From: a virus
Taxonomy: Duplodnaviria; Heunggongvirae; Uroviricota; Caudoviricetes
Strand: one strand, 5' to 3'
DNA length: 64,000 nt
Virus record (IMG/VR): IMGVR_UViG_3300021255_002784
Span: 24,416 to 88,415 of that record
The position numbers and the translations under genes were made by a program. The number at the start of each line of letters is the position of its first letter. Positions within the stretch are counted from its first letter, which is position 1. This document shows positions 121-41,040 of this stretch, piece after piece. The notes beneath the pieces were generated by a model that was not told the origin of the DNA, did no database searches, and saw only the letters and a program-made list of their open reading frames with translations.

Positions 121-438
121 ATGTTAAGTATAGCCAAGCTAAAACTTCAACTGGATATCAGTAGGGCACTCAGAAGTGACAAAGTGGCAAAAGTGTTCGA
201 AAATGCACTACTGAGCACCTTTCCAGTTGTCAATGACGAAAACGGAGCTCATGATATGGCAGAATCATTCGGTAAGTTATGTGCCAACGGATTATCTTCA
301 GCACTAGCTCAACCTATCACCGATGCAGTAGATGATTATGTCAAAGAGATAGGATTGCAGATCACGCCTACTATGTTGATGAGTCCGACCGGACCAGTGA
401 CAGGATCCATCAACCCAATAGATGTTAAAGTACTATGA
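121..438 (+). CDS. hypothetical protein (105 aa)
   Basis: ORF on + strand whose stop overlaps the next start (ATGA); no recognisable motif. Confidence 0.4.
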   Translation: MLSIAKLKLQLDISRALRSDKVAKVFENALLSTFPVVNDENGAHDMAESFGKLCANGLSSALAQPITDAVDDYVKEIGLQITPTMLMSPTGPVTGSINPIDVKVL

Positions 439-1952
439 GAAATATATTTGAAGAAGCGGGTGGTCAAAAATACGTTTCTGGATCTGAACGTCAGACCATG
501 GAGCGCGATAATAAAGGCAAACGCTGGGAGGATTATGATACTATCGTCTGCCCAGACGGTACTCGTATAGACATGGCCAACCTCCTCCAAGAACAAGCCA
601 AAGCCAAAGCAGCACTCATACACTTGGAGCCTATGTTCGCAGCCTTTGTTAATAGGCTTCAAATAGTATATACGTTTCGTATTAAAACACAAGCAACAGA
701 TGGTTTCCACCTGTTTGTCAATCCCCAATTTACTAATGTTCTAACTTTCGAAGGGAAAGTATTTGTCATGGCACATGAATGTATGCACTGTGTGCTTGAT
801 CACATGCGCAGGGGGCGCCAAGCGGGCCATGATCCCGAACGTAGTAACATCGCTGCGGACTACGAAGTAAACCAAACTCTGGTCGACCTAGGCCTGTTTA
901 GTGCTGCTACTATTCAAAAGATCAGAGGCCTCATCGATTCTAAATATTCAGGATGGGCATATGAACGTATTTACGATGATAGCCCAAAAGGAAATACATC
1001 AGGCAATAACAATAACAGTCAGAAAGGCAAATCTGATAATTCTCAGGGAGGCCAGAAAGGTCAATCCCAAGCGGATCCGAACAAAAATGAAGGTCAGGTC
1101 AAACCCGAAGACTGTGCCGGACAATACGGGAGTAACATGCCTGAGACACCGGGCGGATTCATGGATGCACGCGAAGGTAATGAACTCGCAGAAAAAGAAG
1201 GTTACGACAAAGGTCCTACCGATGATGCCAACTCTAATGAATGGAAACGGGTTGCCATCAATCAAGCACAAAAAGATAATCGTACAGATGCTCATGGAGC
1301 TCGTGGGCGGTTCTATAGTAAGATTCTCGATCTCTGGAAAACAAACACAGATTGGAAAAAAGCCTTTCGTAAGATCATAGGTCGTGCATTAAATACTCAG
1401 GACCGACGTCGTGCGTTTGCAAACAAAAACATACTCGCTACTCAACGGGACCCTAATGGTCGTGCTCGCATAGCTATGGCTGACTTCGATAAGTTCGACG
1501 CAGTAGACTACATGACCATATTCATTGATAGTTCGGGATCCATCTCCGACGACATGCTTCGATATATGCTGGGAGAGGTTTATAATATAGCCCTACAGCT
1601 CAAACCCGAGACTTTGGTGCTCGTTCAGTTGGATACTACTGTTCAAGAATGTCAAATTTTTCACGACTCTAATGAGTTCAAACGATATGCCAAAGTGGCT
1701 ACCGTCAAAGGGCGCGGCGGTAACTACCAACAAGCCTGCTGGGATTTCCTACGAAACGATAAACGTTTCTCACGAACTCAGTCAGAATTGGTTATTATGT
1801 TTACAGACGGTTGGCTGGATCAACACAAGCGGGATCCGAAAACCATGTCGAATTTGTGCTGGGCTATTATTGACAACCCATCATTCAAATTACAGTACCC
1901 AGAAACACGTACATCAGTCGTATATCTGAGTTCAAAAGACATCAAGAAGTAA
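435..1952 (+). CDS. putative metallopeptidase-like (HExxH) + von Willebrand factor A domain protein
   Basis: HECMH zinc-binding-like motif near the N-terminus; C-terminal DxSxS MIDAS-like motif (IFIDSSGSIS) typical of vWA domains; long Gly/Asn/Gln-rich low-complexity linker. Confidence 0.55.
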   Translation: MRNIFEEAGGQKYVSGSERQTMERDNKGKRWEDYDTIVCPDGTRIDMANLLQEQAKAKAALIHLEPMFAAFVNRLQIVYTFRIKTQATDGFHLFVNPQFTNVLTFEGKVFVMAHECMHCVLDHMRRGRQAGHDPERSNIAADYEVNQTLVDLGLFSAATIQKIRGLIDSKYSGWAYERIYDDSPKGNTSGNNNNSQKGKSDNSQGGQKGQSQADPNKNEGQVKPEDCAGQYGSNMPETPGGFMDAREGNELAEKEGYDKGPTDDANSNEWKRVAINQAQKDNRTDAHGARGRFYSKILDLWKTNTDWKKAFRKIIGRALNTQDRRRAFANKNILATQRDPNGRARIAMADFDKFDAVDYMTIFIDSSGSISDDMLRYMLGEVYNIALQLKPETLVLVQLDTTVQECQIFHDSNEFKRYAKVATVKGRGGNYQQACWDFLRNDKRFSRTQSELVIMFTDGWLDQHKRDPKTMSNLCWAIIDNPSFKLQYPETRTSVVYLSSKDIKK

Positions 1953-6922: not shown

Positions 6923-8611
6923 ATGGATGTAAAGTACCTACTAACCGCTCCAAGGAGTCGTTGCACGGAAAAGCATATTAAAAATAAATTTCCAGACGAA
7001 TATGTTATTATCAAAAATTTGGACGGGGAAACATTTGGAGAAAAACTTTATAATTACTGCTACAATTCTCCTGAACATGTGTGCCCTGTGTGTGGGAAAC
7101 AAACCAAATTTATGAATTTTATAAATGGATTTCATGAGTATTGCTCGACAAATTGTTCATACCGCAGTGAAAGGAGAACCAATAAAATTAAAAAGACTTG
7201 CATCGATAGATATGGTGTTTCCAATGCCTCCCAGCTTCAAGCGATTAAAGACAAAAAAAGACAGACGATAACTAAAAATTTCGGCGGATTTGGATTCGGA
7301 AGTCAAAAAATTTCTGAAAAATCAAACAAAACTATTCAAGAGAGATATGGTGTGGATAATATATCGACATTAGCTGAAATAAAAGATAAGAAAAAAGTAA
7401 CCACACAAAAACATTATGGCGTTGATAGTGTATTGTCCCTTCAGGAAAATAGAGAAAAAGCCAAACTGGCGATTCTAAAAAAGTACGGAAATGATTTTTT
7501 CAAGCATATAAACGCACTTTCAAGAGCATCAGTCAAACGAAATATACCCAGAATACATAATGACTTTATCTGTTATGATGAAAATGGGAATTGGATTATG
7601 AAATGCCCTCACCCTGAATGTAATAAGTGTGCTGAAAAAAGATACATCACCAAACAAAATATGTATCATGATCGACTAAGATGGGGAGCTGAGACGTGCA
7701 CACACTTGTTGGAACCGGGTAAATTTTCGAAGGGTTCGACAATAGAGTTGTTCGTAAGAGATATATTAGATCGATGCAACATAAATTATGAACCTAACGT
7801 TCGCAGTATTATAACACCAAAGGAATTAGACATATATATATCATCAAAAAATTTAGGGATTGAAATAAACGGTCTTCGATGGCACAGTACTGAGTTCAGA
7901 ACATTCAGTGATCATATAAATAAATTCTTACTGTGCAAACAACGAGGCATACGGCTGTTAAGCATTTGGCAAGATTGGATAGTTAATAAACCCCAAATTG
8001 TCGAGTCAATGATTTTGGATAAGCTAGGTCTCTGTTCTAACAAAATATATGCAAGAAAGTGCATTATTAAAGAAATTGATTCGAAAACGTGTAACTCATT
8101 TCTTGACCACAATCACATTCAAGGGGCATGTAAATCGGTTATCAGATTAGGCTTATATTATAATGATGAATTGATGAGTGTAATGTGTTTTTCCAAAAGA
8201 TCCAAATTATCTGGATCTAAAAGTATAAATAATGAAGAATGGGAGCTTATAAGATTTTGCAGTAAATTAAATCACGTTATTGTTGGAGGAGCCGGTAAGT
8301 TGTTGAATCATTTTATAAAAAATTGGAACCCTAAAATTATAACATCATTTTCTTGTAATGATATAAGTGATGGGGGATTGTATCGGATACTAGGATTCGA
8401 GGAGGAAGGCATAAATCCTTCATATTGGTATGTAGAAAAAAGTACCTATAAACGATATCATAGGGCTACTTTTACTAAAACCTGTATAAAGCAAAAATAT
8501 CCAGAATTAGATATTGAAAATCATACTGAAACAGAATTGATGTCATCCTTGCCTTACTGGAGGATATACGATAGTGGGACTACTAAATGGAAATTAAATG
8601 TAGAGTCCTGA
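6923..8611 (+). CDS. putative free-standing homing-endonuclease-like protein (Zn-finger, tandem ~30-aa repeats, Vsr/PD-(D/E)xK-like nuclease core)
   Basis: N-terminal Cys clusters (CPVCGK..., CSTNC); three tandem repeats RYGVxNxSxLxxIKDKKKxT; central region ELDIYISSKNLGIEINGLRWHS resembling Vsr/DUF559-type PD-(D/E)xK nucleases; C-terminal GGAGKLL-containing domain of unknown fold. Confidence 0.4.
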   Translation: MDVKYLLTAPRSRCTEKHIKNKFPDEYVIIKNLDGETFGEKLYNYCYNSPEHVCPVCGKQTKFMNFINGFHEYCSTNCSYRSERRTNKIKKTCIDRYGVSNASQLQAIKDKKRQTITKNFGGFGFGSQKISEKSNKTIQERYGVDNISTLAEIKDKKKVTTQKHYGVDSVLSLQENREKAKLAILKKYGNDFFKHINALSRASVKRNIPRIHNDFICYDENGNWIMKCPHPECNKCAEKRYITKQNMYHDRLRWGAETCTHLLEPGKFSKGSTIELFVRDILDRCNINYEPNVRSIITPKELDIYISSKNLGIEINGLRWHSTEFRTFSDHINKFLLCKQRGIRLLSIWQDWIVNKPQIVESMILDKLGLCSNKIYARKCIIKEIDSKTCNSFLDHNHIQGACKSVIRLGLYYNDELMSVMCFSKRSKLSGSKSINNEEWELIRFCSKLNHVIVGGAGKLLNHFIKNWNPKIITSFSCNDISDGGLYRILGFEEEGINPSYWYVEKSTYKRYHRATFTKTCIKQKYPELDIENHTETELMSSLPYWRIYDSGTTKWKLNVES

Positions 8612-8742: not shown

Positions 8743-10317
8743 ATGAGAAAAGTGATAAAACGAGACGGATCCAAGGAGATCTTCAATTTTAGTAAGATAT
8801 ACAATGCTGTTGATGCTGCATTCGTACACTGTAATCGAACGATGCCTGAAGGTTTCAAATCTGCATTGGAGAGTACATTCAAAAACGAGAACCCCCGCGA
8901 CATAAATGGTAAACTCCTTCCACTGACGGTAGAGTCTATTCAGGATCGAGTCCAGAACCTGCTGTTCAAACACGGATATCAAGATGTATATAACGAGTAC
9001 CTTATATATCGATATGAGCACAAGGTGACACGTGAATACGTCAAGTCCCAACGGGATTTCATCGACAGGTACATCCAATCAGATAACAATGCCAACGCCA
9101 CTATAGACGACAATTCTAATGTGGCCAGTAAAAACATAGGTACACTCAATAGTGAGATCCATAAACCATGGAACATCAAAATCTCTCGGGGCATGGTTAT
9201 GGACATGCTCAAGATACTGTATCCGGACTTCGATCACAAACAGTACATCAGGGATCTGGCCCATCATATAATATATAAACATGACGAGTCTACTTATGCC
9301 GGGCCTATCGCACCGTACTGTTGTAGTATTTCTATGTATCCATTTATTACTGGTGGTATCAAACATATCGGTGGTCTGTCAGCCTGCCCGCACAGTCTGA
9401 TGTCTTTCTGTGGTATATATATCAATCTGATATTCGCCATCAGTGGTCAGTTTGCAGGCGCTGTAGCTACGTCAGAGTTCTTCGTATACTTCGATTATTT
9501 CGCCCGAAAAGAATGGGGTGACGATTATTATAAGCGCACAGACGAACTCGTTGGAAAACGCACTTTACACAAGCTTATTCACCAGTATTTTCAACAGGTG
9601 GTGTACAGTATCAACCAGCCCGCAGCAGCACGAGGTATGCAGAGTGCTTTTGTGAACTTCTCATACTTCGACAAACCATTCTTTGATGGTATGTTTGGCA
9701 ACTTCATGTTCCCGGACGGAACCAAAGCATGCTGGGAGAGTGTTAACTGGCTACAACGCGATTTTATGCAGTGGTTCAATGAAGAGCGCTTACGCTGTAT
9801 GTTAACGTTCCCTGTAGAGTCTTTTGCTCTGGTATACAAGGACGGACACTTCGTGGATCAGGACAGCGCGGATTTCGTAGCGGCTGAGTATGCTCGAGGT
9901 CATTCCTTCTTTACGTACATATCTGATTCGGTGGATTCACTTTCTTCGTGTTGTTTTAATGGGGATGAAATTATCAAAATTAAAGATAAAAACGGTAATA
10001 ATTTTTCCACATCAATATCGGATTTTGTCAATTCAATAAGTTCTTCAGTTTGCCCATCAGGGAAAAAGATTGGGGAAAAAACATATTTTATAGATTCTTT
10101 TAATAAAAATGGTGGTTGCAAAGAGGTTCAGATTACGGGGGTTTTGAAAAAACAATACTGTGGCAAAATGTATAAGATTTGCGTGGATGAAAATAAATAC
10201 ATCACAGTAACACCAGACCATATTTTAATGGTGAGAAATCGAAAGGGGAATATTCTTTCCCTCCCTGCAGAAGATGTTGTAAGAAACCCAGATGACTATG
10301 AACTTGTTGTGGATTGA
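8743..10317 (+). CDS. nrdD: anaerobic ribonucleoside-triphosphate reductase NrdD, N-terminal fragment fused to the N-terminal half of an intein (IntN)
   Basis: ATP-cone at the N-terminus (MRKVIKRDGSKEIFNFSKIYNAVDAA); conserved NrdD SSCC(RL) motif split after the first Cys; from 9952 intein block A (CFNGDEIIKI) and block B (ITVTPDHILMV); stop after ~121 intein residues. Confidence 0.8.
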   Translation: MRKVIKRDGSKEIFNFSKIYNAVDAAFVHCNRTMPEGFKSALESTFKNENPRDINGKLLPLTVESIQDRVQNLLFKHGYQDVYNEYLIYRYEHKVTREYVKSQRDFIDRYIQSDNNANATIDDNSNVASKNIGTLNSEIHKPWNIKISRGMVMDMLKILYPDFDHKQYIRDLAHHIIYKHDESTYAGPIAPYCCSISMYPFITGGIKHIGGLSACPHSLMSFCGIYINLIFAISGQFAGAVATSEFFVYFDYFARKEWGDDYYKRTDELVGKRTLHKLIHQYFQQVVYSINQPAAARGMQSAFVNFSYFDKPFFDGMFGNFMFPDGTKACWESVNWLQRDFMQWFNEERLRCMLTFPVESFALVYKDGHFVDQDSADFVAAEYARGHSFFTYISDSVDSLSSCCFNGDEIIKIKDKNGNNFSTSISDFVNSISSSVCPSGKKIGEKTYFIDSFNKNGGCKEVQITGVLKKQYCGKMYKICVDENKYITVTPDHILMVRNRKGNILSLPAEDVVRNPDDYELVVD

Positions 10318-10358
10318 GTTTATCCAAAGAATAATTTATTATATTAAAAACCGATCAA

Positions 10359-11477
10359 ATGGAAGATTATTTAATTTGCCCAATATGTAGTTGTAAAAGT
10401 AAAAACCTAATATCACATATTAGAAGAACTCATGACAAAAATATAAAAAACAGAGTTGATTTTGAAAATAGATTTCCTGAATTAAAAGGTACAAAACTTC
10501 AGATATCTAGATACGATTTGTCAAAAGAATTTAAGTGTGAGTTTTGTGGAAAAATCTACCACAGATTGAATGACTTAAGAAACCATATTCGGCAAAATCA
10601 TCCGGATAAATACTTCAAAACAATACCTAACTTAAAAGCACCTCAACAAAAATGTCCTATATGCTCAAAACTGGTAGGAAACTTAAGACAACATGTTAAA
10701 GAATCTCATGATTTAGAATGGGAAGTATTTTGTAAAGAATATAATTGGGACGTTAATAAAGCAAAAATTATAACTGACGAGTACAGGAAAAAATTGTCGG
10801 AAAATAAAAAATTATATTATAGGAGTCCAGAAGGGTTGAAAAGAAGAAAGAAACAATCAGATTTCTGGAAAGAAAATAATCCAGTCTACAATCCAAAATG
10901 TTTAGAAAAATCAATGTTTACAAGAAGTTCAAATGGGCACCTACCAGTACGAAACCAGGATTGTAGAGGAATAAAAGTTAATTGTTTTGGAAAAACATTC
11001 AGAAGTTTTACCGAATTTAAGTTTTATATCTTGTGCAAAAAATACGGATTAAACATCAGATATGAACCAAACGATTATTGCGTCAAATGGTATTCAGAAG
11101 ATAAAAAATTTTATACTACATATCTCCCAGATTTCATCATAAATGAAAACGAACTGATCGAATTAAAACAAGACAAATATCAGGTTAAAAAATGTGTAAA
11201 TTTTGAGAAATACATAAAAGTTTCAGAAGCATATAAAAAATTAAATGTTAATTTTAAGATAGTTGATCCTATTGAATTTTTCAAAGAAAGGGGCGTAATT
11301 TTAGATTTTGAAGATAAACAGTACATTAAAGATAATATATTAAATTTGTATGATAAAAACGCTATACGAATAATAACCCCGTATAAAGAATCTTCCGAAT
11401 TAAGAGATCTTTTCGAAACGGACAATTTATCGAACATTTCTTGCATAACATTCACCAAAAATGCTAAAAAATCATAA
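10359..11477 (+). CDS. free-standing homing endonuclease (C2H2 zinc fingers + PD-(D/E)xK/Vsr-like domain) located between the IntN and IntC genes
   Basis: three CxxC...HxxxH fingers (CPICSCKSKNLISHIRRTHD, CEFCGKIYHRLNDLRNHIRQNHPD, CPICSKLVGNLRQHVKESHD); C-terminal YLPDFII...ELIELK nuclease-like motif; own ATG after a frame-0 stop, different frame from flanking ORFs. Confidence 0.6.
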   Translation: MEDYLICPICSCKSKNLISHIRRTHDKNIKNRVDFENRFPELKGTKLQISRYDLSKEFKCEFCGKIYHRLNDLRNHIRQNHPDKYFKTIPNLKAPQQKCPICSKLVGNLRQHVKESHDLEWEVFCKEYNWDVNKAKIITDEYRKKLSENKKLYYRSPEGLKRRKKQSDFWKENNPVYNPKCLEKSMFTRSSNGHLPVRNQDCRGIKVNCFGKTFRSFTEFKFYILCKKYGLNIRYEPNDYCVKWYSEDKKFYTTYLPDFIINENELIELKQDKYQVKKCVNFEKYIKVSEAYKKLNVNFKIVDPIEFFKERGVILDFEDKQYIKDNILNLYDKNAIRIITPYKESSELRDLFETDNLSNISCITFTKNAKKS

Positions 11478-12582
11478 TATGAAATATTGCAAAATTTATA
11501 AAATAGAGACTATAACTGTTGACCAACCAGTATATGATATAGAATTGGCAGAAAATCATTATTTTTCCGCCAATGGTATAATCACACATAATTGCAGGCT
11601 CAAGAACAAGGTGCAAACCAAAGAGTTCAATTTCACCAATGGTAATATGGGCGTCATGACTGGTAGCAAGTCAGTCATCACTCTGAATCTGAACCGTATT
11701 ATCCAAGACAGTTATAATGAGTGGTGTAAGATCTTCTCTAATGGTACACCTGACGAACTGAAAGAGACGTTCAAAGAAGACTACAGTGTTCTTTGCAACA
11801 GTCTCCAACAAGTACTCGAAAGAGTATATAAGTATCACACCGCCTACAACGAGAGCCTCTGGCGTATGTACGATGCACATATGTTACCTGTATATAGAGC
11901 AGGATTCATATCACTGGACAAGCAGTACCTGACTATCGGCATCAATGGTCTGAACGAAGCCGCTGAGTTCCTTGGTATATCCATCAATGACAACCCCGAG
12001 TATTCGAAGTTCTGTCAGACGGTGTTTAGCTGTATCAAAGATATGAACACCTCACACAACGGTAAGTTTAACGGACATAAACTGACATTCAATACCGAGT
12101 GTGTTCCTGCAGAATCGTTAGCTGCCAAGAACTACAACTGGGACAAGGCTGATGGATACTGGGTTCCTGAAGGACGTAATCTGTATGCATCTTATATATA
12201 TCTACCGTCTGACGAGAAAGTCAATCTGTTCGAGAAGATACGTATGCACGGTAAGAATTACATCGGCGACTACCTGGACGGAGGATCAGCAGCTCACCTC
12301 AACCTGGACAGTCACCTGAGTAAAGCCCAGTACGAGAAAGTGCTTCAGTACGCAGCTGAACAAGGATGTCAGTACCTGACTTTCAATATACCGAACAGTG
12401 AGTGTGCCGACTGTGGATATATTACGAAAGTACCTATTGCTCAATGCCCGAAGTGTGGATCAGAACATATCTGGTACTACGACAGACCGATTGGATATAT
12501 AACCCGAATAGATCGCTGGGCAACAGCAAGACAGATCGAACAAAAAACAAGAGTATACGAACACATTCCATCGGATTGTTAA
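11461..12582 (+). CDS. nrdD: IntC (C-terminal intein part) fused to the NrdD C-terminal fragment
   Basis: intein blocks F/G (VYDIELAENHYFSANGIITHN) then +1 Cys resuming CRLKNK (completes SSC|CRL); C-terminal Zn-ribbon CADCGY...CPKCGS and glycyl-radical region RPIGYITRI. Confidence 0.8.
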   Translation: MLKNHNMKYCKIYKIETITVDQPVYDIELAENHYFSANGIITHNCRLKNKVQTKEFNFTNGNMGVMTGSKSVITLNLNRIIQDSYNEWCKIFSNGTPDELKETFKEDYSVLCNSLQQVLERVYKYHTAYNESLWRMYDAHMLPVYRAGFISLDKQYLTIGINGLNEAAEFLGISINDNPEYSKFCQTVFSCIKDMNTSHNGKFNGHKLTFNTECVPAESLAAKNYNWDKADGYWVPEGRNLYASYIYLPSDEKVNLFEKIRMHGKNYIGDYLDGGSAAHLNLDSHLSKAQYEKVLQYAAEQGCQYLTFNIPNSECADCGYITKVPIAQCPKCGSEHIWYYDRPIGYITRIDRWATARQIEQKTRVYEHIPSDC

Positions 12583-12587: not shown

Positions 12588-12619
12588 GAACCTAGATCCT
12601 AAAGATCTAGGTTCTTTTT
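12588..12619 (+). terminator. strong rho-independent terminator after nrdD
   Basis: AAGAACCTAGATC...GATCTAGGTTCTT perfect hairpin + TTTT. Confidence 0.7.
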
Positions 12620-12632
12620 AATATATTGATAT

Positions 12633-18749: not shown

Positions 18750-19254
18750 AGATACACATAGCCCAATGAAGGCATATCGTTTGAAACACATACCCACAGG
18801 TCTCTATTGGGTGAAAAAAAGCTACGGTCGTCTTTCTGATACAGGGACCTTGTTTACAACAGCTGCTAATTCGTTTAATGGATTAGGTCCTGATTCGAGT
18901 GTTCCTTTGTATATCTTACAGGACAAATTCATCCGTCAACACCTGGATGTATTTGAGAGAGTAGGTGAACTCGAAGAAATTCCTGAAACAGAATGGGATA
19001 TGAAAATCGGTAAATTTATCCCGACAGGTAAGTCGCACTTTCAATGGCACATGACATCTAAGGTATCGGATTTTGAGAAAGAATACGTGACCCTGGATCC
19101 CGAGGTACCAGAACCGCCTGTAAGCGAGAAGGATTCGGACCTTGTTGAGCAAGTAACACGTATCTGCTGGAACCAGATGTTTTCTATCTCAAAGGACTTG
19201 ATGCCTTACGAAGATCTATTGAAACGTGTTAAAAATCAATTGGATAAGAAATGA
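18739..19254 (+). CDS. hypothetical protein (~171 aa from the internal ATG)
   Basis: ORF; start chosen at MNNKDT after the upstream stop. Confidence 0.4.
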   Translation: MNNKDTHSPMKAYRLKHIPTGLYWVKKSYGRLSDTGTLFTTAANSFNGLGPDSSVPLYILQDKFIRQHLDVFERVGELEEIPETEWDMKIGKFIPTGKSHFQWHMTSKVSDFEKEYVTLDPEVPEPPVSEKDSDLVEQVTRICWNQMFSISKDLMPYEDLLKRVKNQLDKK

Positions 19255-19769
19255 AAGTCATTTTCCTGGACATAGATGGTGTGCTCAATTCAGAAGAATA
19301 CTTCAAACGCTGGCATGAGGAGAACCTAGGACAAAAAGGTCACGATCATTATGTAGATGAGATAGCTGTGGATAGACTGATGGACCTGATCCAGAAGACG
19401 GGTTGTTATATAATATTATCCTCTTCTTGGAGACGACACAACCTACCTGATACTATTTTATATCTATCCGAACACCGAAGTTTGGATAGGATACAACCTT
19501 ATCTGATTGGCATCACACCCCGTCTATGGCAGTACAGAGGTAGAGGTGACGAGATCAAACGTCTGATGAATGAATGGTCTGACTGGGTCAAGCGGGGTCT
19601 GATCAGCGAAAAATTCAAAGATGACAAGATCAATAACTACGTTATTCTGGATGATGATTCAGACATGCTGGATGAACAAAAAGAACATTTCATTCATACA
19701 AAGTGGGCAGTAGGGCTACAGGATTCTGATGTGGAGAAGTGCTTAAATATTTTGGGAGGAAATCACTAA
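19251..19769 (+). CDS. HAD-superfamily hydrolase-like protein
   Basis: N-terminal FLDIDGVLN (HAD motif I DxDGV); its stop codon lies inside the AATCACTAA repeat motif. Confidence 0.5.
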   Translation: MKVIFLDIDGVLNSEEYFKRWHEENLGQKGHDHYVDEIAVDRLMDLIQKTGCYIILSSSWRRHNLPDTILYLSEHRSLDRIQPYLIGITPRLWQYRGRGDEIKRLMNEWSDWVKRGLISEKFKDDKINNYVILDDDSDMLDEQKEHFIHTKWAVGLQDSDVEKCLNILGGNH

Positions 19770-19840
19770 CAAGGTCTTGAAAACCCTTGGGACTCCGTCA
19801 ACAAAGTCTTGAAAACCTTTGGGATTTCATTAAACATTTC
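19761..19840 (+). repeat. two tandem units of the intergenic repeat cassette + T-run + promoter box
   Basis: AATCACTAACAAGGTCTTGAAAACCCTTGGG...CAACAAAGTCTTGAAAACCTTTGGGATTTCATTAAAC then TTTTTTTCTTTTATATATACATAA. Confidence 0.7.
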
Positions 19841-19933
19841 CTCTTTTTTTCTTTTATATATACATAATAGCAATATACGACACGTCTACATATTGGAATC
19901 TTTGATATTCAACCATTCAGAACGGGTCCAATT

Positions 19934-21520
19934 ATGCTTGACACTTTTATTATATATAAAATTACCAGATCAACCATGATTGCACAATACGAAGCATTGA
20001 ACTACGGACCCGCAGGTGGAACGTATCCTATATCAATCAACACGGATGCCATAGTGTCTTACAGAAAGACCTACCAGAACAAACCTATGGTGAATATTCC
20101 GGCTTTCACTGACCACCATCACATCAAACCCGGAATGAACATCATATACTACACCCTCTCGAAAAGGTATCAGGAGTTCATAGATTTTATTCAGGTCTCT
20201 GAAGGAGGGCTGGTTGAGATGCAAGACAGCTGGAGGAGATGTCAGGAATTAACCTCACGAATACCTTCTCCGGATGAAGTGTCTGCGGACGATCTTATAG
20301 TTGAGATGCAAGGCATACAAGAAGAAATGACGAGTGCTATGAAGAGCTACCAGTGGACCGGTATTCCTGTGTTCGACACCCTTAAATTCGAGGTTTATGA
20401 AAATCACACATACAATTTTGACACATTGAACCCTGTAAGCCGTGCGGTTGAGACCTTGAGTCTTATGTTTGATGATTATCAGACGATGACATTGGAGGAT
20501 TTCCAGACCAGAGTAAGCGAGTACTATATCAATGAGCTTCAAATTCGTTATTCTGAAATCCACGAAGTGAAAAGTAACATGTCGTATTTTAGCGAACTCC
20601 TCGATTACCTTATCCAATGCTGTGACAGTATGTATGAAGACACGCGGATCGAAACAGGAACAGATTTGGATGAGATACGGATGAAAGCTCAGTTTAATGA
20701 AAGCGCTTATCAGATTTTTAATGATATACTTCAAAGGACTACTGAATATTTTAGTATCATAACATCGACCGAGGCCATAAGTTCTGACGATGTGAAGCAT
20801 CTCATACCTGCGGTCGGATACAACAACGATGCATTCGATATCATTAGGGATTTGTCATTCATCGAACTCGGGAGTAGTATTGGATTGACCCTTCCTGGGA
20901 GTGATTACAATATATATTCATCTGATTACTCAATTATTTTCCAGGAAAAAGACAATATGTATCATGAAGCATATGAACGAATGTATGAGTATGCCTACAA
21001 TGGTACAGATTGGTTGACGTTTGTTCAAGCCATGGACCCTATTAAAGGGAGTCTGCATAATATCACGGAGCAGTGCAATATTTACAGAAGTTCATTAGAT
21101 GATTTGACAAACACCATCGATGAATTGAAAGGCCTGAAAGACCTCTCAGACACGGATCTAATTGAACGCATCATTGACATCATGAACAGCTTATTGTTAT
21201 TGGAACACCACTCTGAATCGGATATCGACTCCGTGGTCAACCAACTGGATGTCACTAACATCATGCTTCGTTACTACTACGACAACGTGTCATCTGGTTA
21301 TGGGAAAGAATTGGGTACTTGTGGCCTGGTGGATGATGTGATCAGTACATGGTGCGCCTCCCATGACATACATAGTTTGCAATTAGCGGTGAACCACACC
21401 ATCCCTCAACTCATAAATATCCTGAACGAGATATATGAAAACGACAACGTGTCTTCGTTGTATGTTATCAGATTAACCAGCGGGGACACTATTCTCAGTA
21501 GAAGTGTCATCACAGGGTAG
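19934..21520 (+). CDS. hypothetical protein (528 aa)
   Basis: long ORF, acidic; no recognisable motif. Confidence 0.5.
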   Translation: MLDTFIIYKITRSTMIAQYEALNYGPAGGTYPISINTDAIVSYRKTYQNKPMVNIPAFTDHHHIKPGMNIIYYTLSKRYQEFIDFIQVSEGGLVEMQDSWRRCQELTSRIPSPDEVSADDLIVEMQGIQEEMTSAMKSYQWTGIPVFDTLKFEVYENHTYNFDTLNPVSRAVETLSLMFDDYQTMTLEDFQTRVSEYYINELQIRYSEIHEVKSNMSYFSELLDYLIQCCDSMYEDTRIETGTDLDEIRMKAQFNESAYQIFNDILQRTTEYFSIITSTEAISSDDVKHLIPAVGYNNDAFDIIRDLSFIELGSSIGLTLPGSDYNIYSSDYSIIFQEKDNMYHEAYERMYEYAYNGTDWLTFVQAMDPIKGSLHNITEQCNIYRSSLDDLTNTIDELKGLKDLSDTDLIERIIDIMNSLLLLEHHSESDIDSVVNQLDVTNIMLRYYYDNVSSGYGKELGTCGLVDDVISTWCASHDIHSLQLAVNHTIPQLINILNEIYENDNVSSLYVIRLTSGDTILSRSVITG

Positions 21521-21561
21521 TCCGTGTCGAATTAGGAATAACAAAATAATCCAACTAACAT

Positions 21562-21765
21562 ATGAAATCAATACCATCTGCCGACTGGCAACAAGCACAC
21601 TACAAACGCATGGTAGCACATAAGATCCATGAACGTTACAGTGTGGACGACGAGATAGCACTGCTGCGTCAGAAAGACGCCAAACCCGAAGAGTACGAAG
21701 CTTACGTGAAGTACGCAGATGGGTGTAAAGAAACAGTGAAGAAACTCGTTGCAAGAGAAAACTAA
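21562..21765 (+). CDS. hypothetical protein (67 aa)
   Basis: ORF. Confidence 0.35.
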   Translation: MKSIPSADWQQAHYKRMVAHKIHERYSVDDEIALLRQKDAKPEEYEAYVKYADGCKETVKKLVAREN

Positions 21766-21767
21766 AG

Positions 21768-21820
21768 AATTAAGAGGAAATCACTAAAGATTTCCTCTTT
21801 TTTCTTATATATATACATAA
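21768..21820 (+). promoter_or_regulatory. terminator hairpin with conserved ATCACTAAAGAT loop + promoter box
   Basis: GAGGAAATC-ACTAAA-GATTTCCTC hairpin, TTTTTT, then TTCTTATATATATACATAA. Confidence 0.65.
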
Positions 21821-24570: not shown

Positions 24571-24616
24571 CGAGAGAATCACTAAAGATTCTCTCGTTTT
24601 TCTTATATATACATAA
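24571..24616 (+). promoter_or_regulatory. terminator hairpin (loop ACTAAA) + promoter box
   Basis: GAGAGAATC-ACTAAA-GATTCTCTC, TTTTT, TCTTATATATACATAA. Confidence 0.65.
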
Positions 24617-24667
24617 AAGACACGGACGGACTCGTGTGTTAGCTTGAGGATTACATGATCGTTTGAA

Positions 24668-25463: not shown

Positions 25464-26149
25464 AACAACATATTATGAGTGTATTAGATATTGATGAACG
25501 AATAGAGCAAGCCAGCGAACAAGCCGACCTGTATCTGCGTTGGAAGGCTGAAGACGATGAGTTCCAAAAGAAACATCCAGACAGTCTTATATATTCATGG
25601 TTTGCAGAGCATTCGAAAACATGGAAGCCCGAACCCACATTGGATGTATTTATGGATCCTGATAATCCGCCAGCTCTCACAGAGATTGAAGAAGCATATG
25701 GTAGGCCTCATGTGAAGCTTGGCTGCGGCCATCCGGTTTTCTTTGTTACGTTTTTTTGTCTTGCAAAATACATGGTGGATATAATTCATCCAGGTATCCC
25801 GCCAGATAAGAGTAAAATACCAACTATTTATGCACTGACGACTTTTTCAAAGGTGGTTCAATTATCCATTGCAAATATGACCATATCGTCGCAGTGCGGA
25901 ACGCAAGTGAAGTTTGATATAGATTTTCCACCGATAATTGCCTTAAAAGACGTGACTGAATGGCCGGATTGGTTGATTGATAGCAGAAAATGTAGATGTA
26001 GACAACCATGGGACCGTGTCACATTCTGGATAGATGATAGCTGCGATACAAAATCAATCGATAAACTTATATATCAACCAGGCATATCGTATGGCGATCC
26101 TGCTGGATATAATTTTTTCAGACAATCAGACTATTTTCTTGTGTTCTAA
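25460..26149 (+). CDS. hypothetical protein (229 aa)
   Basis: ORF. Confidence 0.45.
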   Translation: MKQHIMSVLDIDERIEQASEQADLYLRWKAEDDEFQKKHPDSLIYSWFAEHSKTWKPEPTLDVFMDPDNPPALTEIEEAYGRPHVKLGCGHPVFFVTFFCLAKYMVDIIHPGIPPDKSKIPTIYALTTFSKVVQLSIANMTISSQCGTQVKFDIDFPPIIALKDVTEWPDWLIDSRKCRCRQPWDRVTFWIDDSCDTKSIDKLIYQPGISYGDPAGYNFFRQSDYFLVF

Positions 26150-26352
26150 TCACTAAAATTTTGGTTCTGTTTTCATATATTTATATATAAAACAATATAA
26201 CATATGACTACACAATTTCCAAAGCATAAGTTAGACAGAGTTTTCAAAGAATTATTTGAAGATCGGTACGGCGACAATGCCCTTGCCTATATCAGGATAG
26301 GTTGGAATGAAGCAGCCAAGTTTATGTTCAACGAAATGAATAAGGACAACGC

Positions 26353-28659: not shown

Positions 28660-28780
28660 TCGTAGAATCCACTATTTTTTTTACGTCGGAATCACTAACG
28701 AAGTCTTGAAAAAACCCGAGATTTCATTAAAGATTTCGGCGTTTTTTCTTATATATATTCATATTAGAGAAATAACATAT

Positions 28781-29062: not shown

Positions 29063-29393
29063 AATTATGGATGATGAATTAAAACTCCTACAGATCGCAG
29101 GATGGGTCCTTTGGGTCGCAGTAGTAGTAACAGCAGTATTAACTATTTAACAAAATAACCCATGAACAAAACTCTTATTATCGCAACAATCATATTAAGT
29201 CTGGTGAACGCAGGCTTATGCATTATGTCTGATAATTGGTCTGGTGTATGTGGATGGGTAGTAGCGGCTATATCCAATATCGAACTACTAGGAAAATAAT
29301 TTTTAGTTTTTCGCTAACGCAGTCTTGAAAATCTTTGATTTTCATTAAACATTTGACAGTAGTTTCAGATATATACATAAAGAACAATAACAT

Positions 29394-31252: not shown

Positions 31253-32755
31253 ATGGTAAACATTTCATTTATTATCGGAGGTGCGGTTTTGACACTCCTC
31301 GTTCTGATTCTGTGTCTTTCGTATGTGAAGGCAAGTCCTAACATGGCATTGGTAATCTCGGGTTGGCCATTGAAGAATCCTAAGTTCCTTAAAGGCACAG
31401 GTGGCCTTCGCATCCCAGGATTACAAAAAGTAGATGGTCTGTATCTCGGACAATTCTCTGTGGATATCAAAGCGTCATCTATCCCTACGAAGGACTTCAT
31501 CAACGTGAATGTCGACGCAGTGGCGAAGATTTGTGTCGACCAAGAACTTATTGCGACAGCAGCAACTAACTTCCTGAACTTCAGTCCTCAAGACATTGCA
31601 CGAAACATTCAAGAGTCATTGGAAGGTAACATGCGTGAGATTGTTGGTACACAGGAGCTCAAACAGTTGAACCTGGACCGAGATGGATTCTCCGACCAGA
31701 TCCGTAACAAGGCCGAGAAGGACATGCAACAGTTAGGTCTCCACATTCTTACCTGTAACATCCAGAACATCACTGATGAAAAAGGGCTTATTCAGGACCT
31801 AGGTGCAGACAACACTTACATGATTAAGAAGAACGCCTCCATCAACAAAGCTAATGCGGAACGCGATGTCGCTATTGCCGAAGCAAAAGCAAAGAAAGAG
31901 GCCAACGATGCCCGAGTAGCATCCGAGACGGAGATCGCTCAACGTAATACCGAGTTGGCAGTCAAACAGGCGGAACTGAAGCGTCAAGCGGATACCCAAA
32001 AGGCAATGGCCGATGCAGCTTACAAGATCCAGGAGCAAGAACAGGCCAAAGAGATTAACGTCAAGACAGTTGAGGCACAAGCAGCTAAGACGATCCGTAT
32101 CAACGAGCGCCAAAAGGAAATCAACCGTCTCGAGGTAGAGGCAAAGGTCGAGAAGGCCAAACAAGAGCAAGCCTTGAAAGAGCAAGAGATTGCTATTCAG
32201 GAGAAGACATTGGCTGCACAAGTCAACAAACAAGCCGATGCAGATAAGTACCAGAAAGAGGTCAATGCCGCCGCCGAATTGGAGCAACGTAAACGTAAGG
32301 CAGAAGCCGAGCGTTATGAGGCAGAACAGAAAGCACTGGCTGTCAAAGCCAAGGCGGAAGCGGATCTCTATGCGCGCCAGCAAGAAGCCGCAGGTATCAA
32401 GGCTGTAGGTGAGGCAGAAGCAGCTGCCATCTTGGCTAAGGGAGAGGCAGAAGCCAAAGCAATGGACAAGAAAGCAGAGGCGTACAAGAAGTACGGACAC
32501 GCCGCACTCGCACAAATGGTTGTGGACAAGCTCCCTGAGGTAGCCGCATCAGTCGCAGAACCACTCAAGTCTATCAAGGACGTTCACGTCTATGGCACGA
32601 ACGGTAGTGAGGTATCAGGTATCTCAGGCAACGTTCCGGTGCTGGTGAAACAGTCGATGGATGTGATGGAACAGGCTACCGGTGTAAACCTCGGAAAGAT
32701 TATGGAAGAGAACTCCAAAGTGATCTCTGCAGGAGCCAAAGTGGAAGGTAAGTAA
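31253..32755 (+). CDS. SPFH/band-7 (flotillin-like) membrane protein with long Ala/Lys/Glu-rich coiled-coil
   Basis: N-terminal TM helix, SPFH-like core (ALVISGWPL...GLRIPGLQKVDGLYLGQFSVDIK...), then ~250 aa of AEAKAKKEA-type heptad repeats (flotillin/YqiK architecture). Confidence 0.6.
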   Translation: MVNISFIIGGAVLTLLVLILCLSYVKASPNMALVISGWPLKNPKFLKGTGGLRIPGLQKVDGLYLGQFSVDIKASSIPTKDFINVNVDAVAKICVDQELIATAATNFLNFSPQDIARNIQESLEGNMREIVGTQELKQLNLDRDGFSDQIRNKAEKDMQQLGLHILTCNIQNITDEKGLIQDLGADNTYMIKKNASINKANAERDVAIAEAKAKKEANDARVASETEIAQRNTELAVKQAELKRQADTQKAMADAAYKIQEQEQAKEINVKTVEAQAAKTIRINERQKEINRLEVEAKVEKAKQEQALKEQEIAIQEKTLAAQVNKQADADKYQKEVNAAAELEQRKRKAEAERYEAEQKALAVKAKAEADLYARQQEAAGIKAVGEAEAAAILAKGEAEAKAMDKKAEAYKKYGHAALAQMVVDKLPEVAASVAEPLKSIKDVHVYGTNGSEVSGISGNVPVLVKQSMDVMEQATGVNLGKIMEENSKVISAGAKVEGK

Positions 32756-34766: not shown

Positions 34767-35126
34767 CAGTGTAAAAAAATTAAAAAAAAATATAAAGATC
34801 ACTAAAATTTAGAAAAGTTTTCTTATATATTATTGTAGAAGGACAGAAGCAAAAGTTCTAATACAAAACGATCTTTGACATATTGGAAATAGCAAAAAAG
34901 AAACTACATTGCTAAGGAAGGATAGTAAAACTATCCTGACAAAGCAATCGCAATACAAACAGGCGTAACGCTACTGTTTCTCGTGAGAGTTCAGTTACGA
35001 AAGGATGGGTCGAAAGACTTTCTTATCACATCCCGGACCACTTAGATCGATGAGGTGGACATTACGTAACGCTTTGACACAACGAGCGTATTTCTAGAAA
35101 TAGAATTTTGGAGTTGAGTTATCAAT

Positions 35127-39011: not shown

Positions 39012-39086
39012 CACACAAAAAATTAAATGATCCATTAAAGATCAGAAGAGAGCTTCTATATATTATTATAGAAGAACGAAACATAC

Positions 39087-39923: not shown

Positions 39924-40286
39924 CAGGTCTTTGACATATTGATACCGCAAGAAAAGAATAAGTTCAAAGATTCAACACGTTTTTATGCGATTGAGTAGGC
40001 AGTTGGAATAATAAGCGTCATAAGATGAGGGAGTCGACGTTGAAATCGAATTGTTACCAGAGCAGCACTTACTGGGAGTATTAACAAAGTCTTGAAAGCT
40101 TCGAGATTTCATTGATGAACATAGCCCGAAGTCAACAAAACGAGAACGATTCAACGGGTTCGAATCCGATGAATCCAACACAAACCGGATGGTGCAACCG
40201 GATAGTCACGGGATTGAAACTTACTGAGTATGTTCCGCTTCAGAGTACTTCGGAGAACCCCTATATCTTTTAAGCGGTATCTTTTT

Positions 40287-40358
40287 GCCCCGATAGTTCA
40301 ACGGATAGAACATGTGGCTACGGACCACAGGATCCGGGTTCGAATCCTGGTCGGGGTA
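40287..40358 (+). tRNA. tRNA-Arg (ACG)
   Basis: canonical, loop CTACGGA. Confidence 0.85.
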
Positions 40359-40366
40359 CTTTTTAT

Positions 40367-40439
40367 GCGGGAGTAGCTCAGCTGGTAGAGCATCTGCCCT
40401 CCAAGCAGAGGGTCGCGAGTTCGAGTCTCGTCTCCCGCT
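40367..40439 (+). tRNA. tRNA-Gly (TCC)
   Basis: canonical arms; loop CCTCCAA (C33). Confidence 0.7.
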
Positions 40440-40514
40440 CAATCCTTCCAGGTTTAAGTTGAAAGAGCGGCCTGGTAGCTATGTTCTGGAATAGCAAAAA
40501 ACTCATCGCTCCAC

Positions 40515-40541
40515 AAGGATTTTGAAGGTTGAATCCTTTTT
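40515..40541 (+). terminator. rho-independent terminator-like hairpin inside the tRNA array
   Basis: AAGGATT-TTGAAGGTTG-AATCCTT + TTTTTT. Confidence 0.5.
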
Positions 40542-40544
40542 TAT

Positions 40545-40618
40545 GGTGTCTGTAGCTCAGCTGGTAGAGTGGAGGATTGTGGTTCCTAAGGTCGTGGGTC
40601 CGAGTCCCACCTGACACC
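40545..40618 (+). tRNA. tRNA-His (GTG) with encoded G-1
   Basis: loop TTGTGGT, extra 5' G opposite C73, T-loop TCCGAGT. Confidence 0.75.
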
Positions 40619-40638
40619 CATACACAAAACTATTCCAA

Positions 40639-41032
40639 TATGAATTTCAAAACGATAACACATCGTCAATCATGGAAAGATGCTGAAAGTATCTATATCA
40701 TGGAGAGTACAGGCGGCGCAATGATCAGAATCACCAAATACACTGATAATGAAGCCTATCTGTTATCTGACTTGTACGTCAATCCGGTATTGAGAAAACG
40801 TGGACTGGGTACTCTGATGATTGAAAGTGCTATCAAGGAGTGTCGTACTCATGCGCAGCTGAATGACATTGAGCCATGTGTCGTTGAGATGGCAGTTAAT
40901 GATCATTCCGAGAAGTTCTGTGCTGAATGGTATCAACGAATGGGGTTCGTTCTTAATAGAAGTGAAGCACCGATCGATACAACATTCGACAATGAACTTG
41001 AGTGGTGTGATATCTATAGACTCGTTGTCTGA
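40639..41032 (+). CDS. GNAT-family N-acetyltransferase
   Basis: motif A-like VNPVLRKRGLGTLMIESAI; the ORF as listed starts inside tRNA-His, so the start was moved to MNFKT. Confidence 0.55.
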
Positions 41033-41040
41033 TGTTTACA

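Follow-up and report, generated by a model that had tools for sequence, protein, structure and literature searches.

The window, the 64,000-nt stretch of DNA analysed here in full, derives from a 197-kb uncultured phage that resembles the T4 superfamily and probably infects Bacteroidales. Pfam matches in the phage include Portal_T4, T4_baseplate and Phage_T4_gp2, and for its portal protein, identity to the portals of huge uncultured phages, PAU and Lak, is just 35-42%. Protein clusters, together with the contigs that encode them, led to relatives. L018 and L049 are two other assemblies of the same phage, and the sister phages L044, L025, L050, L051 and L061, at ~75-85% nucleotide identity, were set against the window. 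Megablast of 4 kb of the window against 50,697 phage records gave no match, and scanning IMG/VR with single proteins, the ligase and one of 417 aa, recovered no relatives.

Three kinds of element recur at gene junctions of the window: a two-part promoter-like motif, found on the + strand only, in which CAYTAAA is followed after a gap of 11-13 nt by the A/T box TTTCWTATATWTATACATAA; a hairpin with a T-run, which wraps this motif in about half of the copies; and imperfect palindromes of 31-35 nt, hereafter units, of which one to six are inserted exactly at CAYTAA/A (the slash marks the insertion point). The features are as follows.

12590-12632, + strand: hairpin AGAACCTAGATC-CTAAA-GATCTAGGTTCT and box; the ThyX ATG lies 16 nt past the box start
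19754-19763, + strand: 5′ arm of the outer terminator-like stem, GGGAGGAAAT, read from the sequence; pairs in the fold with 19836-19845
19763-19769, + strand: TCACTAA, left half of the split −35-like element, with the insertion point after CACTAA; read from the sequence
19770-19801, + strand: unit 1, 32 nt, type A, with a GGGACTCCGTCAA 3′ end (nhmmer E = 4e-6)
19802-19833, + strand: unit 2, 32 nt, type A, CAAAGTCTTGAAAACCTTTGGGATTTCATTAA (nhmmer E = 4e-10); identical to the unit at 55276-55307
19828-19834, + strand: CATTAAA, the −35-like element as restored by the 3′ end of the last unit, 13 nt ahead of the box
19836-19850, + strand: 3′ arm ATTTCCTCTT (19836-19845) and run of 7 T (19844-19850), a tail that is also the putative promoter spacer
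19848-19867, + strand: A/T box TTTCTTTTATATATACATAA, with −10-like TATATAT and putative start region ACATAA
21772-21820, + strand: unit-less basic cassette AAGAGGAAATC-ACTAAA-GATTTCCTCTT, T-run and TTTCTTATATATATACATAA, ATG at 21832 (terminator scan; fold −14.6 kcal/mol, z = −5.0)
24571-24618, + strand: basic cassette CGAGAGAATC-ACTAAA-GATTCTCTCG, T-run and box (terminator scan)
26148-26192, + strand: hairpin-less candidate promoter TAATCACTAAA-N13-TTTCATATATTTATATATAA, conserved in L044
28684-28766, + strand: one-unit cassette, outer stem CGTCGGAATC/GATTTCGGCG with two G.U pairs (fold −24.3 kcal/mol, z = −5.2)
29305-29382, + strand: candidate promoter upstream of the ligase gene, one unit (29318-29348), no hairpin
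34797-34845, + strand: hairpin-less candidate promoter variant TATATATTATTGTAGAAGGAC at the head of the tRNA region; variants also at 39035-39078 and 43575-43620
41034-41115, − strand: three inverted units (type A, type B, partial), the first overlapping the 5′ end of tRNA-Arg(tct) at 41108
41207-41307, + strand: unit, CACTAAA, box and, after ACATAA, a second unit (41276-41306, putative start region); arrangement repeated at L051 7983-8018
54034-54111, + strand: one-unit cassette, its unit identical to that at 29318
55258-55335, + strand: unit and hairpin GCAGC-ATCATAAAG-GCTGC, no box
56762-56905, + strand: three-unit cassette, period 32, outer stem GGAGAAAT/ATTTCTCC kept (tandem repeat scan; fold z = −3.3)
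60432-60680, + strand: one type-B (60453-60488) and five type-A units (60489-60650); tandem repeats of period 32, 4.6 copies; 5′ arm AACCCCAGAA present twice, box degenerate
61302-61345, + strand: hairpin-less candidate promoter with a four-genome footprint (alignment A1)

The 5′ arm at 19754-19763 overlaps the last codons of the gene at 19251-19769, and the TAA within 19763-19769 doubles as the stop codon of that gene.

The preliminary description had treated such junctions as copies of a single intergenic module. The sharing is real and far beyond chance, but that module merges the promoter motif, the terminator and the inserted units; each of the 17 positions it listed holds at least one of the parts, yet they are not copies of one module. 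Units without a box lie at 40076, 41041 and 55256, a box without a real hairpin lies at 18289, 29296, 34790 and 43591, and the hairpin at 14775 has a different loop. The short hairpin described as a fixed part of the cassette is actually a separate repeated insert, present in variable number. About ten box sites lie beyond that list, for example at 12617, 16970, 26171, 30714, 32805, 50998, 52095, 61325 and 63475.

The two-part motif

The motif stands ahead of protein genes and tRNA genes alike, as had been proposed for the box. With dinucleotide-preserving shuffles as the control for motif counts, the box 16-mer with ≤3 mismatches has 25 matches against 1.9 expected (0 of 100 shuffles as high), and GTCTTGAAAAC with ≤1 mismatch has 12 against 1.6. 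CAYTAAA, exact or with one mismatch, lies 11-13 nt upstream of the box at 14 of 31 + strand sites (13 of them exact) and at 0 of 37 − strand sites, compared with 4.9% of random positions. Strand-specific, intergenic and placed upstream of starts and tRNA genes, the A/T box behaves like a promoter, a reading supported at the sequence level. The layout would comprise a −35-like (T)CAYTAAA, 16-18 nt, and then a −10-like TATATAT embedded in the box, with transcription probably starting at the A of ACATAA.

Start codons lie 14-20 nt past the box start at 12633, 14800, 18308 and 44461 and 31-37 nt past it at most others, distances that would fit a transcription start at ACATAA with leaderless transcripts or short A-rich leaders. 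The leaders have no Shine-Dalgarno sequence. The apparent leaderless starts at 61341 and 32821 were discounted, a later ATG being favoured by orthologues or gene calls.

Host-type promoter models were dropped: sigma-70-type sites show no enrichment (39 found, 53.8 expected), and the Bacteroidetes sigma-A pattern TTTG..TAnnTTTG has 0 occurrences. Because the motif fits neither consensus, it is presumably read by a specificity factor that the phage encodes or modifies; against this, Pfam tables for the 64 kb of the window list no sigma factor, RNA polymerase or transposase. The likeness of the box to T4 late promoters, seen in the preliminary description, did not hold. Those promoters have TATAAATA at −10, no −35 element and late genes downstream. 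The motif here is two-part and has no TATAAATA on the coding strand; where TATAAATA occurs at cassettes, it is on the other strand, as the TATTTATA box variant read in reverse complement. The genes behind the motif are ligase, ThyX, tRNAs and small ORFans, not a structural-gene class.

Inserted units and their turnover

Type A units read C-RRAGTCTTGAAA..CTTTGGGATTTCATTAA and type B units CGCAGTCGCGGAGACCGCGCAGCGGGACTCCGTTAA, and the 64 kb hold about 21 of type A and 2 of type B. Their ends read TAAC/RRAGTC and TTTCATTAA (alignment A3), and the junction of CACTAA with the unit is common to every filled site; a rarer insertion point follows ACATAA of the putative start region. Since the 3′ end of every unit is CATTAA, an insertion restores the −35-like element at its proper distance, and more units can be added behind it. 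Arrays run head-to-tail, nearly all units are in sense orientation, and identical units occur both as neighbours within arrays and far apart (29318 = 54048; 19802 = 55276). The units have no terminal inverted repeats; only TAA is found at both junctions, and it is ambiguous as a target duplication. Units at 40082, 41034-41115 and 55272 are inverted or without a nearby box.

Empty and filled states were found at matching sites across the sister phages. At the 60443 site (alignment A2), L051 has 0 units, L050 a 10-nt remnant, L061 1 unit and the window 6, a copy number that is uncertain because the L018 and L049 assemblies end inside this array. The window has 3 units at the 56766 site versus 0 in the loop of L050 and L051, and 1 unit at the 54036 site versus 0 in both sister phages, which have a simple hairpin there. 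Its 1 unit at the 29296 site corresponds to an empty orthologous site in L044, and conversely L044 has 2 units at the 18289 site versus 0 in the window. Between 53.4 and 64 kb the window carries 11 units and syntenic L050 carries 0. One orthologous unit was available for comparison (28686 versus L044 17899), and its inner palindrome has been replaced wholesale. Outer stems are intact around inserts of 64-200 nt, which may mean that the inserts are recent or that a large structure is in use.

The units are read here as REP/MITE-like passengers, largely neutral or selfish, that may spread by tandem duplication plus site-specific or microhomology-guided copying and would at most modulate termination or mRNA 3′-end stability. 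A bolder version, less likely than not, is that the units are phage-borne miniature site-specific insertion elements that home into CAYTAA/A, an element usually found in a terminator loop, carry a replacement copy of it at their 3′ end, and are moved by an enzyme or by hairpin-guided copy-choice. An insert carrying its own −35-like copy would leave the promoter unharmed and offer a fresh target to the next, hence the head-to-tail arrays; such an element would parasitise the regulatory signals of a virus in the manner of a REP. The Pfam tables for the window plus 5 kb upstream list no RAYT or Y1 (HUH) transposase.

The units could also have a function of their own, as pairing covariation would allow. 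A 5-bp stem (columns 4-8:19-23) is 85.5% paired with a covariation of 0.296 versus 0.185 when shuffled (0 of 500 reach it), and a second helix scores 0.172 versus 0.108 in shuffles, although the copies are paralogues, so that shuffle controls overstate this support. Acting as 3′ UTR RNA, the units would form small hairpins, or H-type pseudoknots if the two modestly covarying helices combine (columns 4-8:19-23 with 12-16:27-32), that shield the upstream mRNA from 3′ exonucleases, as REP elements do in bacteria, or soak up a host RNA-binding protein; their sense orientation and their place within the transcribed part of the terminator would suit such a role. This reading is nevertheless unlikely, given that the preferred fold differs among unit variants and that units are not conserved at given sites. 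Rfam 15 points the same way: over the window only tRNAs reach the gathering score, and at E ≤ 10 the regions 60400-60720 and 40000-41400 contain no credible match. Two further structures were set aside: a 10-bp wobble-rich helix (columns 6-15:20-29), which shows no covariation, and a hammerhead-like reading by eye of GUC..CUGA..GAAA, for which the 32-nt unit is too short and Rfam gives no support.

The 32-nt period corresponds to about three helical turns and would also suit phased protein binding. On a DNA-level account the units would be cis-regulatory, presenting phased TGAAAAYC..GRATTTCA sites plus CATTAA through which a phage transcription factor tunes the promoter; besides the period, it can draw on the palindromic form and −35-like motif of every unit and on the promoters lying directly downstream. 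We judge it distinctly unlikely, because sister phages carry 0, 1, 3 or 6 units at the same gene, the inner sequence differs outright at the one orthologous unit compared, and some units are inverted or far from any box.

Searches of metagenomes and genomes with the unit pattern returned mostly what look like chance matches in unrelated sequence, with real ones only in L005, L018 and L025, which argues against a host REP or host CRISPR-repeat origin. Among 185,579 bacterial and archaeal genomes there were 10 single matches in unrelated context, none with a cassette. For CRISPR-repeat mimicry, the genome scan gave no multi-copy locus, although a diverged repeat would escape detection. CRISPR-DR families at E ≤ 10 overlap no unit and have no match in the array; the one weak match, at 40168-40220, scores 16.2 bits (gathering score 36) and falls outside the units.

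A constant loop in varying stems

Where a hairpin wraps the motif, its loop is CAYTAAA, and the promoter spacer consists of the 3′ arm and T-run. Terminator-like hairpins number 22 in the 14-34 kb interval against 12.5 ± 3.3 expected. The preliminary description rightly saw that the stems differ yet remain complementary while the loop is constant, as in the paired arms listed above for 21772, 24571 and 28684 and in AACCCCAGAAATC/GATTTCTGGGGTT at 60432. One orthologous stem pair changes from T-A through T.G to C-G across L051, L061 and the window, and G.U pairs occur in stems on the + strand. Hairpin plus T-run is the anatomy of an intrinsic terminator, which is supported at the sequence level, as is selection acting on the stem as structure. 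In about half of the copies, an intrinsic terminator of the upstream gene would thus overlie the promoter of the next.

The preliminary description took loop conservation to indicate an RNA-binding protein. In that case the conserved loop (ACTAAAGAT / TTCATTAAAGAT) would be an RNA signal on the terminator hairpin, read by an antiterminator, a processing factor or a ProQ/FinO-like protein. Variable stems around a constant loop would fit, and a gene at 56921-57253 with a weak Phage_ProQ_C_like Pfam match lies just downstream of the 56766 cassette. The heptamer, however, stands at the same 11-13 nt from the box in 7-8 hairpin-less copies (14419, 26171, 29363, 34819, 43595, 50998 and 61325). At the 61304 site, four genomes (alignment A1) share an unchanged CACTAAAAT and box, whereas the spacer is scrambled at constant length and cannot form a stem. 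The L044 orthologue of the 21768 hairpin is 19 nt longer, and its CATTAAA-to-box distance is unchanged. Across 20 orthologous pairs, box positions 0 to +12 show 85-100% identity (95-100% at nearly all), and TAAA in the upstream element shows 80-100%; beyond −26 and +19 identity drops to 35-60%. An RNA signal is accordingly improbable, and the constant CAYTAAA is best explained as a −35-like promoter element acting at the DNA level: its spacing to the box is kept without a hairpin, and the conserved blocks of orthologues flank a freely varying spacer. The loop would then be constant because it is the −35-like element, while the stems drift and compensate.

That the motifs merely reflect AT-rich intergenic DNA, or arise from faulty assembly, is hardly tenable and is already refuted for the motifs themselves: intergenic DNA in the window is AT-rich, tandem arrays assemble poorly and two assemblies break inside the 60.4-kb array, but the observed counts are never reached in shuffles, the motifs are strictly strand-specific, and they recur in independent assemblies of other samples and in four sister genomes.

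The cassette system is confined to a narrow clade, since L047, a relative at 57% identity, has no such cassette. In IMG/VR the exact basic-cassette pattern has 0 matches and the box pattern has 18, of which only IMGVR_UViG_3300021399_000117 is a true relative, the others being AT-rich chance matches.

Cassettes at gene borders and in known systems

Gene replacements and indels between the sister phages are bounded by cassettes. In L044/L025 an LRR gene takes the place of the interval 19770-21782, which lies between two cassettes; past 23912 the phages differ again, in a region likewise cassette-bounded, and a PotD-like gene is missing from L061. The cassettes are break points of gene swaps and losses among the sister phages. 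Taken together, we consider it fairly probable that the junctions are reused terminator-promoter cassettes with a phage-type promoter, passenger units at CAYTAA/A and cassette-bounded gene swaps, in which case many early/middle-type genes and tRNA clusters would be separate transcription units bounded by the reused cassette.

A T4 middle promoter combines a MotA box at −30 with a sigma-70 −10 element (reviewed in PMC2988021). The motif here shares with it a phage-specific upstream box at a fixed distance from an A/T-rich −10-like hexamer; the box sequence differs, and no MotA or AsiA homologue was identified here.

As a whole, the cassette resembles the PeSLs and PmSLs found in T4-type phages (Arbiol et al. 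2010, PMC2839356; Comeau et al. 2014, PMC4122927). As presented in the passages of these papers drawn on here, they too are short intergenic composites of promoter and terminator stem-loop in many repeats, with a stem-loop that may overlap the −35 box or fall between −35 and −10, and they lie among small variable ORFs at the insertion, deletion and replacement borders of close relatives. PmSLs have a phage-specific upstream box (Mot box) plus a −10, the layout proposed here, and degraded copies with duplicated −35 regions are ascribed to recombinational slippage (PMC2839356, PMC4122927). The defining combination of a promoter motif with a terminator-capable stem-loop is present in the window at the level of sequence. 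In those same passages the promoter is sigma-70-like or TGCTT..TATTAT, whereas the consensus here, CAYTAAA-N16-18-TATATAT, is unrelated; the window phage also differs in its probable Bacteroidales host and in leaders without a Shine-Dalgarno sequence. PeSL activity and mini-circles have been shown experimentally, whereas the present cassettes are known from their sequence. None of the PeSL passages describes a discrete palindrome of 31-35 nt nesting in the loop, restoring the −35 and stacking into arrays.

The units resemble REP elements and BIMEs of bacterial chromosomes, which are associated with RAYT (TnpA-REP) transposases and credited with mRNA stabilisation and effects on termination (PMC3733652, PMC8266576). 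Like REPs, the units are imperfect palindromes in the 20-40-nt range that carry a conserved tag at one end; both are extragenic and in high copy, often between stop codon and terminator, clustered, and subject to rapid turnover between relatives. REPs, however, reside in host chromosomes and bear a GTAG or CGTC tag, whereas the units reside in a phage genome and bear TAAC/RAGTC; BIME arrays alternate, whereas unit arrays do not change orientation; and the units, unlike REPs, insert into one defined heptamer, with no RAYT/Y1 transposase in the window.

MITEs are usually 50 nt or more in size. Like the units they are non-autonomous, intergenic, dispersed short repeats with presence/absence polymorphism, and some are shared by viruses and hosts (PMC11602168). 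The units are far shorter than MITEs, lack their terminal inverted repeats, and show at most TAA as a possible target duplication.

The cassette type is thus already known from T4-like phages; the new part is the nested, fast-turnover, REP-like mini-palindromes. For an uncultured clade of large phages, probably infecting Bacteroidales, the motifs provide a candidate promoter/terminator grammar beyond host-type promoter rules, which should aid the annotation of transcription units and the hunt for the reading factor. The PeSL-type architecture suggests that insulated gene cassettes and border shuffling extend well outside the classical T4-likes. Sister genomes with 0, 1, 3 and 6 inserts offer a natural experiment on whether such units are selfish passengers or adjust termination and mRNA stability; should the units prove mobile, both how they choose targets and how they move would be new for phages.

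Composition of the gap cassette

The preliminary description proposed one genome-wide cassette of conserved-loop hairpin, T-run and A/T-rich box, and the module described is found at 19754-19867. Overall, what was described does exist, yet it is a composite. The similarity goes beyond AT-richness, with 25 matches to a box 16-mer against 1.9 expected and 12 matches to GTCTTGAAAAC against 1.6, counts that no shuffle attains. Good copies all lie on the + strand, within gaps separating + strand genes. Each of the 17 listed copies holds some part of the module, but the set is heterogeneous rather than repeats of a single module, and about 10 more box sites lie beyond it.

Partial and variant sites (window positions unless stated)
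40076, 41041, 55256: inserted units, no box
18289, 29296, 34790, 43591: box, no hairpin
14775: hairpin with a different loop
34819, 39053, 43595: box variants heading the tRNA region
41276, and 7983 in the sister phage L051: insert after ACATAA of the putative start region

When boxes were defined without regard to what lies upstream, CAYTAAA was found ending 11-13 nt before the box at 14 of 31 + strand box sites (13 exact), compared with 0 of 37 - strand box sites and 4.9% of random positions. No hairpin surrounds CAYTAAA in 7-8 of these copies (14419, 26171, 29363, 34819, 43595, 50998, 61325). The earlier claim that the loop is under selection was right, and a second role of the loop as a promoter element would be the cheaper explanation; its reading as the target of an RNA-binding protein is not supported, since CAYTAAA keeps its box spacing in hairpin-less copies.

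Four relatives at ~75-85% nucleotide identity were compared: L044/L025/L045 (NODE_37, 207 kb), L050, L051 and L061/L001. Among four orthologues of the 61304 site (alignment A1), TATAATTT(T/C)CACTAAAAT and TTTT(T/C)ATATATTTAT(A/G)CAT are essentially invariant, and the 9-10-nt spacer between them is scrambled with its length kept. Across 20 box-anchored window/sister pairs, box positions 0 to +12 are 85-100% identical (almost all of them in the 95-100% range). Identity is 80-100% over the TAAA of the upstream element and drops to 35-60% beyond -26 and +19. The box begins 31-37 nt before the start codon at most sites, and just 14-19 nt before it at 12633, 14800, 18308 and 44461, where the start codon lies inside or just past ACAT. 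A transcription start at the A of ACATAA would place TATATAT around -12 to -6 and CAYTAAA around -35 to -29. This is how a sigma-70-family promoter would be laid out, here with a consensus foreign to it. Sites of the sigma-70 type show no enrichment (39 versus 53.8 expected), and the Bacteroidetes-type TTTG..TAnnTTTG promoter is absent. The proposed resemblance of the box to T4 late promoters did not hold up. The T4 late consensus TATAAATA is over-represented overall (18 versus 4.5 expected), mostly because the box variant CATATATTTATAC contains its reverse complement, which gives the consensus on the - strand at 26178, 41262, 54099, 56891 and 60664.

Terminator-like hairpins are enriched (22 versus 12.5 +/- 3.3 expected in 14-34 kb), and the strong + strand examples stop directly at the box. 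The simple cassette 21770-21804 folds at -14.6 kcal/mol (z = -5.0) and cassette 28684-28748 at -24.3 kcal/mol (z = -5.2). In the proposed arrangement the terminator loop would serve as the -35-like element, and the 3' arm plus T-run as the promoter spacer. Stems vary among copies yet remain paired, with G.U pairs on the + strand. One stem pair at the 60443 site is T-A in L051, T.G in L061 and C-G in the window, a series that fits selection acting on the transcript. In L044, the cassette orthologous to the one at 21768 folds into a far longer hairpin (GAGGAAATCTTTAATGCA/TGCATTAAAGATTTCCTC), with the CATTAAA-to-box distance unchanged. At the sequence level, the reading as terminator plus promoter is supported, and we infer both functions on that basis.

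The PeSL/PmSL elements of T4-type phages (PMC2839356, PMC4122927) combine terminator and promoter, with a stem-loop that may extend over the -35 box; they cluster where ORFs are variable and are located at indel borders. Our cassette likewise would work as a terminator/promoter composite, but its putative promoter resembles neither the sigma-70 nor the Mot-box type. By sequence, it is therefore an analogue in a distant lineage rather than a member. Taken alone, the basic putative cassette represents a kind of phage regulatory architecture that is ordinary and has been described before, found here in a new lineage.

Source phage and gene content

The window is contained in ena:ERZ12302814 NODE_40 (197,476 bp) and recurs at 100% identity in assemblies of other samples (L049, L018); a comparison with 50,697 deposited phages gave no near match. 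Its portal protein belongs to the Portal_T4 family and shares 42% identity with that of an uncultured 462-kb phage, against ~34-35% for Sphingomonas phage PAU and the Lak phages.

Sister phages have exchanged genes at cassettes. Window 19770-21782 (528-aa and 67-aa ORFs), between two cassettes, is swapped for a 270-aa LRR_5/DUF7666 gene in L044/L025. The region past 23912 also differs, bounded in L044 by a three-unit cassette. A phage-encoded spermidine/putrescine ABC-transporter substrate-binding protein (PotD-like, 58912-60192), present in L050 and L051 and missing from L061, shares 57-63% identity with proteins from Bacteroidales and Paludibacteraceae; it is probably encoded by an auxiliary gene of host origin and offers a clue to which host that is. 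This identity, together with A-rich leaders devoid of a Shine-Dalgarno sequence, leads us to infer a Bacteroidales host.

Other genes in the window
435-1952 and 6923-8611: large ORFs matching homing/HNH endonuclease PHROGs (Pfam DUF2201, DUF7487), the latter between portal and NrdD genes, in a region with many selfish-gene candidates
8743-12582: anaerobic ribonucleotide reductase NrdD in two ORFs, 8743-10317 (ATP-cone + NRDD) and 11461-12582 (NRDD), around a 372-aa ORF (10359-11477, weak zf-Di19 match); NrdD is a single 735-aa protein in L044, and the split resembles the insertion of a mobile gene or an interruption of intron-like kind
31253-32755: 500-aa Band_7/flotillin-family protein, conserved in L044
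39265-39346 and 39851-39924: tRNA-like genes, 88% identical over 98 aligned columns including short flanks, both with anticodon loop CTAAGGA; among 29 tRNA calls, ARAGORN assigns Leu(aag) and Pro(tgg), respectively, and of the two only the first is reported by Rfam, the second probably being a duplicate in decay
56921-57253: 110-aa ORF directly downstream of the three-unit cassette at 56766, with a weak Phage_ProQ_C_like Pfam match; its product may be an RNA-binding protein

Inserted palindromic units

The repeat originally written as [G/A]CAGTCTTGAAA - short hairpin - TTTCATTAAAC is a discrete inserted unit of 31-32 nt (type A) rather than a fixed part of the cassette; a second kind, type B, measures 35-36 nt. 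A profile search for type A returned ~21 copies in the window. The 21 kb of L044 gave 6 hits, the 21 kb of L050 gave 0, and L051 yielded a single weak one. Tandem arrays have a period of 32. Inserts are always preceded by (C)A(Y)TAA, begin with C and end in CATTAA, which restores the -35-like element.

Three inverted units adjoin tRNA genes or a box. In 41034-41115 (-), the first inverted unit (CTAC|GGAGTCTTGAAAGCCTCCGGATTTCATTAAC) overlaps the first bases of tRNA-Arg(tct) (41108-41181); AAGACTCCGTA occurs twice in this area, 64 nt apart, and some units carry a 3'-end variant, GGGACTCCGT, that matches the tRNA's own 5' end.

Unit content at orthologous sites
60443: window, type B + 5 type A; L061, one type-B unit; L050, 10-nt remnant; L051, empty (AACCCTAGGAATC-ACTAAA-GATTTCTAGGGTT) (alignment A2)
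56766: window, 3 units; L050 and L051, 0 in the loop
54036: window, 1 unit; L050 and L051, 0
29296: window, 1 unit; L044, 0
18289: window, 0 units; L044/L025, 2

The 53.4-64 kb interval of the window holds 11 units and syntenic L050 none. The sole orthologous pair, L044 17899-17944 and window 28696-28730, keeps the ends CGAAGTCTTGAA and TTTCATTAAAG; the L044 middle is swapped for a perfect 10-bp palindrome (CCCTTGGAAA/TTTCCAAGGG). Identical units lie 25-35 kb apart (29318 = 54048; 19802 = 55276) and arrays contain identical neighbours, indicating both dispersal and local duplication. The variable stems around inserts are not homogenised between cassettes, which argues against long gene-conversion tracts and suggests that units move by a precise, site-directed or microhomology-guided process.

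Three candidate helices were scored on 22 distinct units (alignment A3). A 5-bp stem (columns 4-8:19-23; variants include AAAG/CTTT, AAGG/CCTT and GGAG/CTCC) is 85.5% paired, with covariation of 0.296 versus 0.185 shuffled (reached in 0/500). The second helix (columns 12-19:24-32) is 79.5% paired, with covariation of 0.172 versus 0.108 (1/500). The third had no support. Combined, the first two helices might make up a small H-type pseudoknot; set against this, the copies are paralogues, unit variants differ in preferred fold, and the units match no Rfam family.

In size, palindromy, location and turnover, the units are similar to REP elements (PMC3733652), but they have no GTAG/CGTC tag and no RAYT gene is visible in the window. 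Nor do they occur in the 185,579 bacterial and archaeal genomes scanned. Unlike MITEs, they have no terminal inverted repeats, and they are shorter than the usual MITE size. For a reading as CRISPR-repeat mimics, no matching host array was found among these genomes. Overall, these precise, stackable, fast-turnover mini-palindromes, which rebuild a putative promoter element, are the part worth follow-up.
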